A program made the translations under genes and the position numbers. The notes under the pieces are model-generated. The model ran no database searches. It was not told the DNA's origin and was given only the letters and a program-made list of their open reading frames with translations. This document shows, piece by piece, positions 45,826-56,184 of a DNA stretch of 64,000 nt (position 1 is its first letter; every line of letters starts with the position of its first letter). The DNA is from Chlamydiales bacterium (GTDB lineage Bacteria; Chlamydiota; Chlamydiia; Chlamydiales; SM23-39): positions 9,229-73,228 of the forward strand of contig OZ253438.1 of assembly GCA_965261025.1 (NCBI GenBank), given 5' to 3'.

Positions 45826-45907
45826 GGGGGTGTCGCATAGTGGCAATTGCAAGGGACTGTAAATCCCTCGACTTCGGTCTCCGTTGGTTCGAGTCCAACC
45901 GCCCCCA
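45826..45907 (+). tRNA. tRNA-Tyr (GTA), class II with long variable arm
   Basis: GGGGGTGTCGCATAGTGGCAATTGCAAGGGACTGTAAATCCCTCGACTTCGGTCTCCGTTGGTTCGAGTCCAACCGCCCCCA, with anticodon loop CT-GTA-AA. Its 3' 59 nt recur at 47741-47799 and, degraded, at 56131-56184. Confidence 0.92.
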
Positions 45908-46015
45908 TTTTCCTGGACGGTTCTTAAAGTCCGGCATCGTTAAGAACGGTTCTCTCGCTGAAACTGAGAGATTTCCGTCTTTCAATAGCAAGTTCTGAAA
46001 TACTAAATCTAAAAG

Positions 46016-46330
46016 TTATCGTTTTTCATCAGGTTCAGAACTCTCGAAAATTTCTCGAGCGCGAGCCGCGAGGTTCATAACCAGGTTTGCTGTGATATAA
46101 AAATTTTGGTCAGCCTTTTCATGTCGTCCCATCTGTTCGATGATTTCAGTTTGCCGAGATTTGTAGCTGGCGACTCTCTCCAGATACATCTTTTCCGTGA
46201 TCAAGCCATCGAGTTTGTCGTCATAGATTTGATTCAACCGTTTCTGAATGCGCTCCTGCTCTGATCGAAGAACCTGGAGGCTTTCAGAATCCTGGCAGTG
46301 GGCATCGGTAAACTTGCAAATAAAGGTCTC
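46016..46330 (-). pseudogene. remnant of a large serine recombinase (C-terminal coiled-coil region only)
   Basis: The translation ...SEQERIQKRLNQIYDDKLDGLITEKMYLERVASYKSRQTEIIEQMGRHEKADQNFYITANLVMNLAARAREIFESSEPDEKR resembles the YEDKLDG.I....Y coiled-coil segment of phage/ICE large serine recombinases. The catalytic N-terminal domain and the C-terminal end are absent. It lies next to the tRNA-Tyr 3' end. Confidence 0.6.
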
Positions 46331-46558
46331 AATGCTGAGGAGTGGAGAGACATAAAAAGAAAATACGCTTAGAAAATTTTATCGGTTTTTGGTAGTCTCG
46401 ATTAAGATTTTTTTAACCAAGAATGTCCTCAGTGGTCGATACATCAACTAGAGAATCAGAACTCATCCCTTCCACATACGTCGAGTTGCTCAATATTCCC
46501 AAAGAAAAAGATCCGTTCTTCTCAAATTAAAGCCTCTATTTCCGTAAACACAGAGCTG

Positions 46559-47536
46559 GTGAAACTCTACTGGGAAATCGGGCTCGAGATTGTCCAAAGA
46601 CAAAAGGAAGAAGGGTGGGGGACTAAAGTGATAGATAACCTGGCCAAGGATCTTAAAACCAGTTTTCCTCAAATGGCAGGATTTTCTCCTCGTAACCTAT
46701 TCTATATGAAGCAATTTGCAGAAGCTTATCCAGAATTTTCAATTTTGCAGCAAGCTGCTGCAAAAATACCCTGGGGTCACAACATGGTCCTCATCGACAA
46801 ATTGGATGAGTTGAATAAACGACTTTGGTATGCCCAGAAGACAATTGAAAACGGATGGAGTCGAAATGTCTTGGAGATGTGGATTGAATCAGATCTTTAT
46901 AGTAGGCAGGGAAAAGCATTAACAAATTTTTCAACTACTCTTCCTCAGTTAGATTCTGATCTAGCAAACGCGACTTTAAAAGACCCTTATTGCTTTGATT
47001 TCTTGAGGATGCGTGAACAAGCTGATGAGGCTGAAATTGAAGCAGGGCTGGTTGAACACATTCAAAAAGTACTTATCGAACTTGGGACTGGTTTTGCTTT
47101 TGTGGCTCGGCAACATCGAGTTGAAGTTGATGGAGAGGAATTTTCAATCGATTTGCTTTTCTATCACTTTAAACTTAAACGATTTGTGGTTGTAGAACTC
47201 AAGAATGGCCCATTCAAACCCGAGTATGCGGGAAAGATGAGCTTTTATTTGGCTGCAGTAGATGCTCAACTCAAACAACCCGAAGATGCACCCTCGATTG
47301 GGATGATTCTTTGTAAAACAAAAAAAAGACTTATGGTTGAGTACACTCTTCAAGATAGTCGACGTCCCATTGGATTGGCCAGCTATACGACGAAGCTCAT
47401 AGAATCTGTTCCAAAAGACATAAAATCAAGTTTGCCAACTATTGAAGAAATTGAATGTAAGCTCACTGAAAGTAAAATTAAAAATAATTCAGCAAAATTA
47501 AAAGATAGAAATAATGGTGTTTTTAATGATTTTTAA
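46559..47536 (+). CDS. DUF1016/YhcG-family PDDEXK nuclease (N-terminus apparently frameshifted)
   Basis: (E)LVKLYWEIG, WGHNMVLIDKL, AQKTIENGWSRNVL, LKDPYCFDFL, ELGTGFAFV, DLLFYH...VVVELK are the collinear motifs of YhcG-like nucleases. An upstream ATG at 46423 encodes a matching N-terminal piece (..YVELLNI..) in another frame, with a frameshift near the A-run at ~46505-46515. Confidence 0.75.
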   Translation: MKLYWEIGLEIVQRQKEEGWGTKVIDNLAKDLKTSFPQMAGFSPRNLFYMKQFAEAYPEFSILQQAAAKIPWGHNMVLIDKLDELNKRLWYAQKTIENGWSRNVLEMWIESDLYSRQGKALTNFSTTLPQLDSDLANATLKDPYCFDFLRMREQADEAEIEAGLVEHIQKVLIELGTGFAFVARQHRVEVDGEEFSIDLLFYHFKLKRFVVVELKNGPFKPEYAGKMSFYLAAVDAQLKQPEDAPSIGMILCKTKKRLMVEYTLQDSRRPIGLASYTTKLIESVPKDIKSSLPTIEEIECKLTESKIKNNSAKLKDRNNGVFNDF

Positions 47537-47740
47537 GGTAGTTTACATTTAAGGTGGTTTTGATTGAAATTTAATGCAATTCGAGCTCAGAACTAGCCCT
47601 GCAAAATAGAGGTTTCTGGATATAGAATCTAGAAATATTTCCTTGTGGGAAGGGAAGTTACAGATAAAGCCTGATCCCCTGGTGCCTATCCAGATTCTGT
47701 GCATAAGCGAAAAGAGCAATAATTTCTTTGGATTTGCGAA

Positions 47741-47799
47741 GCAAGGGACTGCAAATCCCTCGACTTCGGTCTCCGTTGTTTCGAGTCCAACCGCCCCCA
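47741..47799 (+). repeat. direct repeat of the 3' 59 nt of tRNA-Tyr (att-like copy B)
   Basis: GCAAGGGACTGCAAATCCCTCGACTTCGGTCTCCGTTGTTTCGAGTCCAACCGCCCCCA differs from 45849-45907 at 2 positions (anticodon GTA to GCA, and one T-stem base). The 5' half of the tRNA is absent. Confidence 0.9.
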
Positions 47800-47844
47800 T
47801 TTCTCTATGAAAATCCGATAAAGTTTGAGCCAAAAGGATAGCCT

Positions 47845-55681: not shown

Positions 55682-55684
55682 CCC

Positions 55685-55930
55685 TTACTCGGCCAGGCAT
55701 TTCAAAGTTTTGCCATACTTTCTATTGACCTTTTTCATGGACTCACTAAATTTCTTCTTTTCAGATTTTTTCTTGATAGGAGTAATAAGAAGGGTCTCTC
55801 CATCAGGGGTTGAAACTTGAAGTAAAGTTTGATCGTTTATTCCTAAGAGATCCAAGATAGCTCTTTCTATGATAAGGGCGTAGCTATTTCCGTGTTTTGT
55901 TAGTTTTTTAGTAATACTCATACACGCCAT
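55685..55930 (-). CDS. AbrB/MazE/SpoVT-family antitoxin (Phd-like role)
   Basis: MSITKKLTKHGNSYALIIERAILDLLGI matches the SpoVT-AbrB swapped-hairpin motif (G.S..v.iP). The likely start is the ATG at 55921. Confidence 0.7.
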   Translation of the reverse strand: MACMSITKKLTKHGNSYALIIERAILDLLGINDQTLLQVSTPDGETLLITPIKKKSEKKKFSESMKKVNRKYGKTLKCLAE

Positions 55931-55949
55931 CCTAGGGTAAGTTATTCCA

Positions 55950-55963
55950 AATGTATATACATT
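55950..55963. promoter_or_regulatory. 14-bp perfect palindrome upstream of the AbrB-type antitoxin (candidate operator)
   Basis: AATGTATATACATT lies 20-30 nt upstream of the antitoxin start. It is AT-rich, so chance occurrence cannot be excluded. Confidence 0.35.
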
Positions 55964-55996
55964 GTATATCTAAAATTAGTAATTTGCCAAGTTTTT

Positions 55997-56102
55997 GGGA
56001 CACAAATGGGGCAGTAGTCTTTCAAAAAAGCCAACTAAAGACAATAGGTTTCAATAAATAAAGATTTCTAAGAATCTCTTTTTTAGGTTGATAAGTGTTG
56101 AG
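55997..56102. repeat. ~105-bp repeat R1 (partner at 57822-57926)
   Basis: GGGACACAAATGGGGCAGTAGTCTTTCAAAAAAGCCAACTAAAGACAATAGGTTTCAATAAATAAAGATTTCTAAGAATCTCTTTTTTAGGTTGATAAGTGTTGAG aligns with 57822-57926 with scattered mismatches. Confidence 0.85.
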
Positions 56103-56130
56103 TTTGTTAGGAGAGAGTGGGATTTCAAAA

Positions 56131-56184
56131 GACTGTAAATCCCTCTGCTTGCAGTCTCCGTTGGTTCGAGTCTAACTGCCCCCA
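56131..56184 (+). repeat. degraded direct repeat of the tRNA-Tyr 3' part (att-like copy C)
   Basis: GACTGTAAATCCCTCTGCTTGCAGTCTCCGTTGGTTCGAGTCTAACTGCCCCCA covers the anticodon loop through the acceptor 3' end. It has a different variable arm and two T-arm/acceptor changes. Confidence 0.8.

Follow-up and report, generated by a model that had tools for sequence, protein, structure and literature searches.

In staphylococci, the large serine recombinases CcrAB and CcrC integrate elements of the staphylococcal cassette chromosome type (SCC/SCCmec) at the 3' end of rlmH (orfX) without inactivating the gene, and the resulting arrays consist of elements separated by direct copies of the target's terminus that are only ~15 to 18 nucleotides (nt) long, recombinase-less remnants being common in them. 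In the accretion of cis-mobilizable elements (CIMEs) and integrative and conjugative elements (ICEs) of Streptococcus thermophilus, which employ tyrosine integrases at fda, elements that have lost the recombination module and kept their attachment sites stand in tandem with related elements and can be mobilized in cis or in trans. Here we analyze a 64,000-nt stretch (the window) of contig OZ253438.1 from an environmental chlamydia whose genome forms one 1.42-Mb contig. In it, the ~12 kb (45.9 to 57.9 kb) between a gene for a tyrosine transfer RNA (tRNA-Tyr) and comEC is decayed, horizontally acquired DNA, and very probably consists of three integrative elements, all decayed and arranged in tandem, from a single family whose driver is a large serine recombinase (LSR).

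Stacked tRNA islands with partial tRNAs and dead integrases are well known, and the novelty of the present array appears to lie in its recombinase family and in the anatomy of its attachment site. Its target is a tRNA gene and that of SCC a protein-coding gene, the Ccr recombinases are distant from its LSR family and, unlike CIMEs, those of its units that have lost the recombinase gene (lsr) are only hypothetically mobile. The Islander procedure (Hudson, Lau & Williams 2015, PMC4383910) recognizes tandem arrays, takes tyrosine recombinases as the integrases, and notes Mx8 and SSV as known exceptions in which the integrase open reading frame (ORF) crosses the attachment site. The arrays that it describes, with an intact tDNA (tRNA or transfer-messenger RNA [tmRNA] gene) followed by same-strand 3' fragments that delimit the islands and with an integrase gene beside the tDNA, resemble the window, where we found the intact tDNA at one end and 3' fragments in the same orientation downstream of it; in place of the tyrosine integrase that Islander expects in every island, however, the window has only serine recombinase remnants. 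The tycheposons of Prochlorococcus (Hackl et al., 10.1101/2020.12.28.424599) are similar in that successive insertions at a single tRNA drive older elements deeper and leave partial tRNAs and fragmented integrases. The study gives an LSR for 27 of 937 elements and tyrosine recombinases for 97%, and reports cargo together with replication genes (primase/helicase). Tycheposons belong to another phylum, however, and the text consulted describes neither a module of MerR, Schlafen-like, and LSR genes nor a conserved right-end motif such as we report below. In the text of Durrant et al., a large survey of LSRs, tRNA goes unmentioned, and our literature search found no paper on the present LSR family in chlamydiae; the family and the anatomy of its attachment site seem poorly described.

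The tRNA-Tyr(GTA) gene of the window (45826 to 45907, plus strand; called by both ARAGORN and Rfam) is intact, and its 3' end, which abuts a recombinase gene tail, forms the left border of the array. A repeat search of the window recovered one three-copy family, all on the same strand, comprising the reference within the gene (45849 to 45910), copy 2 (47741 to 47802) at the junction of islets 1 and 2, and copy 3 (56126 to 56187) at the junction of islets 2 and 3. Copy 2 is 97% identical to the gene (E = 7e-22), with GTA>GCA in the anticodon and G>T in the T stem, in agreement with the original prediction for this DNA, which had described two mismatches, one of them destroying the anticodon. 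Copy 3 had been predicted at 56131 to 56184 with a different variable arm; these limits proved a few bases too narrow, and the arm indeed differs (CTGCTTGCAGTCTC versus the gene's CGACTTCGGTCTC), a 3-bp hairpin still being possible when read from the sequence. Ungapped, this copy is 66% identical to the gene, rising to 88.9% over 53 nt once a single-nucleotide gap is placed in its variable arm (E = 1.6e-10).

Copies of this kind could also be independent tRNA-Tyr pseudogenes or the outcome of a local segmental duplication without mobile elements, and the fact that the variable arm of copy 3 differs yet folds, as if taken from another functional tRNA-Tyr allele, would suit such an origin. We find it hardly credible, because the copies are 3' parts only: the homology of copy 2 reaches just 9 nt further, into the anticodon stem (45 of 5,000 shuffles match its score), copy 3 has no supported 5' homology, and Rfam, which confirms tRNA-Tyr and the neighboring tRNA-Thr alike, calls no tRNA at either. 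A reading of copy 3 as a near full-length pseudogene with homology up to the D loop was rejected, its score being matched by 2,222 of 5,000 shuffles. Furthermore, the point within the tRNA at which both copies start recurs as the start of fragments in ~10 other loci, recombinase-derived sequence directly follows each, and the DNA between them is horizontally acquired. With this 3'-only extent, common strand, common start, and recombinase sequence, the pseudogene origin that the original prediction had raised against itself fails.

Islet 1 (45908 to 47740) starts at the tRNA-Tyr 3' end with a remnant of an lsr gene (45908 to 46309, minus strand) that covers residues ~354 to 513 of ~518, contains an in-frame stop, and has a reading frame that continues into the tRNA complement. 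It is 83% identical to full-length LSRs (tblastn E values of 1e-78 to 1e-98), as befits the recombinase remnant that had been supposed to sit beside the intact tRNA, and it matches the phrog_95 integrase; Pfam and PDB searches seeded with the remnant alone returned nothing useful. Judged by this homology, the recombinase of the window is of the large serine type and not, as is generally presumed for tRNA islands, of the tyrosine type. The whole islet is collinear with an element at a locus of another chlamydia (L011), where positions 10824 to 10242 match 45734 to 46290 of the window and positions 3245 to 2068 match 46277 to 47455, save that L011 3246 to 10241 (~7 kb) is missing from the window. 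At the deletion junction (46280 to 46287), an 8-nt microhomology, GCTTTCAG, joins LSR codon ~354 with DNA located ~7 kb further on in the L011 element. By this comparison, islet 1 derives, through a ~7-kb deletion, from an element that is intact in another chlamydia. Its cargo gene encodes a YhcG/DUF1016 PDDEXK nuclease (46559 to 47536, plus strand; PADLOC candidate defense gene PDC-S02) whose protein is 90.5% identical to that of L011, and the LSR tails are ~83 to 89% identical at the nucleotide level, whereas the TtcA proteins of the two genomes are only 54.6% identical; hence, islet 1 was acquired horizontally. The contig of a further relative, L017, carries an islet 1-type element with an intact LSR, YhcG, and a DUF927 protein.

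Directly after copy 2, islet 2 (47803 to 56125) opens with an internally deleted lsr (47803 to 47848, minus strand), in which the ATG and AAGGCTATCCTTTTGGCT (MKAILLA), i.e., LSR codons 1 to 7, are joined to the terminal ~10 codons of the tail. The lsr ATG overlaps the stop codon of a Schlafen-like gene in the window, just as it does at the loci L027, L029, and L059. This middle gene of the MerR-Schlafen-like-LSR module encodes a 629-amino-acid (aa) protein with Schlafen AlbA_2 and HATPase_c_4 domains (47845 to 49734, minus strand), and the first gene of the module encodes a 68-aa MerR/HTH_17 (excisionase-like) DNA-binding protein (49731 to 49937, minus strand). Because the lsr start is fused to the tail and the order of the module is kept, we interpret islet 2 as a second element of the family from which lsr was removed by internal deletion. 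In islet 3 (56188 to ~57926), the flank that follows copy 3 (56188 to 56250, minus strand) resembles this scar, having AAG-CTAT-GGCTCA in common with the lsr start in addition to the tail-like TGGAAATTTC. Over 60 nt it is 88% identical to a scar at the locus L001, where different genes follow. Since this value pertains to a non-coding flank and TtcA is only 74% identical between the window and L001, recent exchange or constraint is suggested.

The fragments begin at the anticodon loop/stem, which in the Islander statistics (PMC4383910) is the commonest sublocation for tyrosine integrases, and the internal fragments at the loci L050 and L028 have rare variable-arm features in common with the host tRNA, as displaced host halves would. 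One may thus think of classical islands in which a tyrosine integrase crosses over at the anticodon loop, the new 3' half displaces the old one, and the integrase genes are lost later. We consider this improbable: no tyrosine recombinase match was found in 45.9 to 58.0 kb, where ORFs of appreciable size were all scanned and the unassigned gaps are <430 nt; the sequence beside every tRNA or fragment is LSR-derived; and the loci L011 and L012 combine LSR tails that are 96% identical with tRNA 3' halves that are only 77% identical, each fitting the 5' half of its own host.

The LSR-driven array gains from the distribution of the recombinase in other genomes. The remnant has 186 homologues of 60 to 90% identity, all of them short and with C termini that translate tRNA complements. 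A profile-based scan of reference genomes with the remnant family yielded 80 loci (L011 to L090), mostly from Chlamydiota metagenome-assembled genomes (MAGs), many of which contain full-length LSR ORFs of ~500 to 550 aa. The L017 LSR displays the Resolvase, Recombinase, and Zn_ribbon_recom domains; its closest solved structure in the PDB is the serine integrase of phage A118, at only E = 6e-5, and the closest matches of the family in phage collections are 36% identical and derive from unannotated contigs. Among the 74 scorable loci, ARAGORN classified 46 in which the LSR gene and an intact tDNA meet 3' end to 3' end, adjoining or overlapping each other (tmRNA, 21; tRNA-Tyr, 15; Asn, 4; Leu, 2; His, 2; Met, 1; Gln, 1), and most of the other 28, when inspected by eye, show a tDNA 3' fragment at the LSR end. 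The order MerR-like, Schlafen-like, lsr, on one strand and ending at a tDNA, recurs in at least 12 loci. Distant members of 38 to 41% identity (L077, L081, L083 to L085, L087, and L088) come from the candidate phyla radiation (CPR)/Patescibacteria, an Acholeplasmataceae MAG, and Gammaproteobacteria; these too end at tRNA genes (Asn, His, and Gln), so that the association of the LSR with tRNA 3' ends predates the chlamydial clade.

Arrays of comparable build were likewise recovered in other genomes. At L024, tRNA-Tyr is followed by 3.8 kb, a fragment, a full LSR, and further scars; at L028, by 9.1 kb, a fragment, and then an LSR; and at L050, where an LSR tail remnant adjoins the tRNA-Tyr, by 5.8 kb, a fragment, and then LSR, Schlafen-like, and MerR genes. 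L038 has an array of the same build at tRNA-Met. As such arrays recur, tRNA-Tyr emerges as a repeatedly used site across the phylum. The locus L001 and the more distant L005 (TtcA 63% identical to that of the window) both keep the order TtcA, SEC-C, tRNA-Thr, tRNA-Tyr and continue with unrelated genes; content common to relatives between tRNA-Tyr and comEC, which would have spoken for core DNA, is thus not what we found. Two candidate correspondences were examined and rejected: the L001 860-aa and APH-like genes as orthologues of a 909-aa/APH gene pair in islet 2 (E = 0.69 and, at 25% identity, 9e-4), and a 532-aa ORF of L005 as comEC, which comparison ruled out.

We then turn to the ends of the elements and the position of the crossover. 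The last 40 nt of the tRNA were not found as a direct repeat within 10 kb of intact LSRs, a result that led to a short right end. In loci with full-length LSRs (L011, L012, L014, and L017), this end consists of YCCAATCAAAAGTTCTGAATGCGTC followed by 12 nt identical to the tDNA end (CAACCGCCCCCA for tRNA-Tyr and TCTCCACCTCCA for tmRNA). This canonical form makes up roughly 30 of 44 pattern matches, in ~20 loci, with the same constant part for tRNA-Tyr and tmRNA targets. At L024, L045, L048, and L089, the right end is joined straight to LSR-tail sequence, as in an excised or tandem junction, and in relatives an inverted repeat formed by GAATGCGTCCA and the tail's TGGACGATTC, with the 12-nt shared core, can be read from the sequences as centered on the tRNA 3' terminus. 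The putative attP of the intact members L011 and L017 would read ..CCAATCAAAAGTTCTGAATGCGTCCAACCGCCCCCA + TTCTYYTGGACGATTC.. Moreover, the intact tRNA 3' half and the adjacent LSR tail show no co-variation (r = 0.03 over 120 pairs), which conflicts with a crossover in the anticodon loop where the element supplies the tRNA 3' half, a candidate that we rejected. Taken together, the right end, the attP-like junctions, the symmetry, and the host-derived tRNA half suggest that the enzyme crosses over inside the terminal ~12 nt of the tDNA.

Such a position raises the question of the long fragments. In one account, the elements are the same and the LSR recombines within the final ~12 nt of the tRNA, while the 53- to 60-nt fragments are secondary: a circle carrying a fragment was inserted by homologous (Campbell-type) recombination, the LSR took an already existing fragment as its target instead, or repeats underwent gene conversion. 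The canonical right end, the attP-like junctions with the inverted repeat, and the absence of co-variation all favor it, and we take it as a serious contender, though with somewhat less than an even chance. What speaks against it is that the long fragments are systematic at tRNA-Tyr and tRNA-Met alike, with a sharp common left boundary at the anticodon loop, like a regular product, and that the contigs of L017 and L025 break exactly at this boundary. The long fragments look host-derived in L028 and L050, and in the window they are the sole junction type. Candidate sources for the long duplications are a second crossover position, fragments serving as substitute targets, homologous insertion, and gene conversion. 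The view in the original prediction that the 59-nt repeats are the footprint of integration into the tRNA 3' end consequently holds for the repeated integration and not for a simple footprint of the LSR reaction.

We propose the following course for the LSR-driven array. An intact element carries lsr at its left end, reading towards the tRNA, with the last codons lying inside the tRNA or tmRNA 3' end and, in many members, with MerR-like and Schlafen-like genes preceding lsr. Elements would have piled up successively at tRNA-Tyr, each junction then consisting of a tRNA 3' fragment plus the recombinase end of the next element; the order of arrival and the recombination event behind the long tRNA duplications are what we infer here, while the repeats, the LSR remnants, the homology with intact elements, the horizontal origin, and the existence of further arrays in other genomes are demonstrated. 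In the subsequent decay, islet 1 lost ~7 kb through the microhomology deletion and islet 2 nearly all of lsr, with islet 3 keeping only a scar and toxin-antitoxin genes. The window retains only LSR residues ~354 to 513 (islet 1) and seven N-terminal codons (islet 2), and the full domain set is seen only in the relative L017. With no catalytic recombinase domain left there, the array has probably become immobile, barring an LSR elsewhere in the genome acting in trans.

Several observations weigh against this reconstruction. The window has no intact recombinase and no canonical right end, and the conserved right-end motif AAGTTCTGAATGCGTC is absent from it at up to 3 mismatches. A crossover at the 3' end would not by itself yield duplications of 53 to 60 nt. 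Islet 3 has no recognizable tRNA fragment on its right, where one was sought before comEC, and islet 2, in which insertion sequence (IS) remnants occur alongside unrelated cargo, could combine several events in one. Finally, the genome collection contains no relative with >90% protein identity, and hence none that would show the empty site.

More tentatively, we envisage that a widespread LSR clade, centered on Chlamydiota with relatives in CPR and some Gammaproteobacteria, specifies tRNA/tmRNA 3' ends through a modular site, builds arrays, and possibly supports mobilization in trans. Such a site would combine a constant half-site, ..CCAATCAAAAGTTCTGAATGCGTC, on the right end with ~12 nt copied from the targeted tDNA, the opposite half-site being contained in the recombinase's own last codons. 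The elements, often with the MerR-Schlafen-like-LSR operon, would build variable regions beside chlamydial tRNA genes, and intact copies may mobilize lsr-less units that have kept their ends; a scar of this sort is found in the window and in L001 with 88% identity. In any case, the loci surveyed show a serine integrase family systematically at tRNA-Tyr, tRNA-Met, tRNA-Leu, and tmRNA, in a phylum with poorly charted mobile elements; the reference work on tRNA islands assumed tyrosine integrases only. Serine integrases are prized tools for genome engineering, and a family with a constant half-site and a short target-matched core would merit testing as such a tool. It would also provide a handle on how environmental chlamydiae exchange defense and toxin-antitoxin genes.

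Arrays of this kind would also explain why assemblies of relatives break at tRNA-Tyr. The contig of L003 ends 39 nt past tRNA-Thr and that of L008, which lacks both tRNAs, 84 nt beyond the SEC-C gene, while those of L017 and L025 end at the anticodon-loop start of a tRNA-Tyr fragment; all four breaks are consistent with repeated or polymorphic junctions in the respective populations. Other ends of the family were encountered near tDNAs as well. At L001 3063 to 3078 (plus strand), ~6 kb from the L001 tRNA-Tyr and on the opposite strand, lies a tmRNA-type right end, AAGTTCTGAACGTGTC + TCTCCATCTCCA, which on its sequence is the end of a differently targeted element that landed in the same variable region. 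Right-end motifs of the tmRNA type occur in series within a few kilobases at L035 (3321 to 8130), L064 (2344 to 4023), and L066 (2655 to 3889), which suggests arrays of very small islets beside tmRNA genes in other chlamydiae.

The array is flanked by core genes. Those upstream encode SurE, a sodium:solute symporter, TtcA, and a SEC-C protein, followed by tRNA-Thr(TGT) (45741 to 45815, plus strand; ARAGORN and Rfam), the upstream partner of tRNA-Tyr in a pair that is kept in relatives, whose tRNA-Tyr in the case of L001 is identical to that of the window. Downstream of the array are comEC (Competence domain; 58015 to 59565, minus strand), the first core gene past it, and NDH-2. The named TtcA homologues derive from Rhabdochlamydiaceae, Parachlamydiales, and Chlamydiia MAGs and thereby assign the window to an environmental chlamydia. 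The composition count bore out the remark, made by eye, that 46 to 50 kb is poorer in A/T homopolymers than the core: runs of ≥5 nt number 5.5 per kb there versus 14.5 ± 3.4 (minimum, 7.0) in 2-kb core windows, at a GC fraction little different from that of the core (0.396 versus 0.382). Islet 3, with a GC fraction of 0.335, falls below every core window (minimum, 0.354).

A 105-nt direct repeat occurs in only two copies in the window and in none of 90 related loci. The first copy (55997 to 56101, plus strand) ends 24 nt before tRNA copy 3; the second (57822 to 57926, plus strand), 86% identical to it, lies 88 nt from the comEC stop codon and is likely the right limit of the accessory region. 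Islets 2 and 3 may have their right ends at this repeat. Each copy is situated ~60 nt upstream of a minus-strand antitoxin gene. A candidate fourth tRNA fragment between the second copy and comEC was discarded, as it amounted to only an 8-mer match that 93 of 2,000 shuffles reach.

Of the module proteins in islet 2, the MerR-like one matches the PADLOC MADS model mad1 (E = 8e-13) besides excisionase models, and the Schlafen-like one shows a weak match to a PADLOC pAgo model; candidate roles of the two in the element are those of regulator, directionality factor, or defense component. Within the Schlafen-like gene, two adjoining near-perfect hairpins with 26-nt arms, 92% complementary, occupy 48163 to 48221; this region encodes the repeated peptide SEG(I/L)(T/S)PQ(V/I)S, and the Rfam match there is at chance level only. 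The remainder of the islet begins with a decayed IS5-type IS of 598 bp (50061 to 50658, minus strand), with terminal inverted repeats and two short DDE_Tnp_1 transposase fragments. The repeat search also recovered an internally deleted copy of the same IS, 291 bp long and resembling a miniature inverted-repeat transposable element (54579 to 54869). The inverted ends of both (50061/50658 and 54579/54869) are ~20 nt long, and neither has an intact transposase. In direct orientation, like the arms of a composite transposon, these copies bracket the genes for a 909-aa protein (50805 to 53534, plus strand) and an APH/choline-kinase family phosphotransferase identified by domain search (53538 to 54551, plus strand), and by virtue of this bracketing the pair may have entered separately. 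The 909-aa protein has no match in Pfam, NCBIfam, PHROG, or PADLOC and only one homologue among 1.84 billion representative proteins (38% identity over the C-terminal 350 residues). Further cargo, found among the ORFs and by domain search, consists of a PBECR2 nuclease-like protein of 115 aa and an overlapping 104-aa protein (54918 to 55576, plus strand), possibly a toxin-immunity pair, and of an orphan MazE/"doc partner"-like antitoxin gene (55685 to 55930, minus strand) with no adjoining toxin gene.

Two toxin-antitoxin pairs lie in islet 3, each made up of small neighboring genes that match known families, as is the case in type II toxin-antitoxin systems. These are a HigB toxin (5e-19) with an HTH_3 HigA antitoxin partner (56360 to 56976, plus strand) and a YafQ toxin (1.3e-31) with a ParD-like antitoxin (57252 to 57869, minus strand), and a 79-aa ORF lies between the two pairs.

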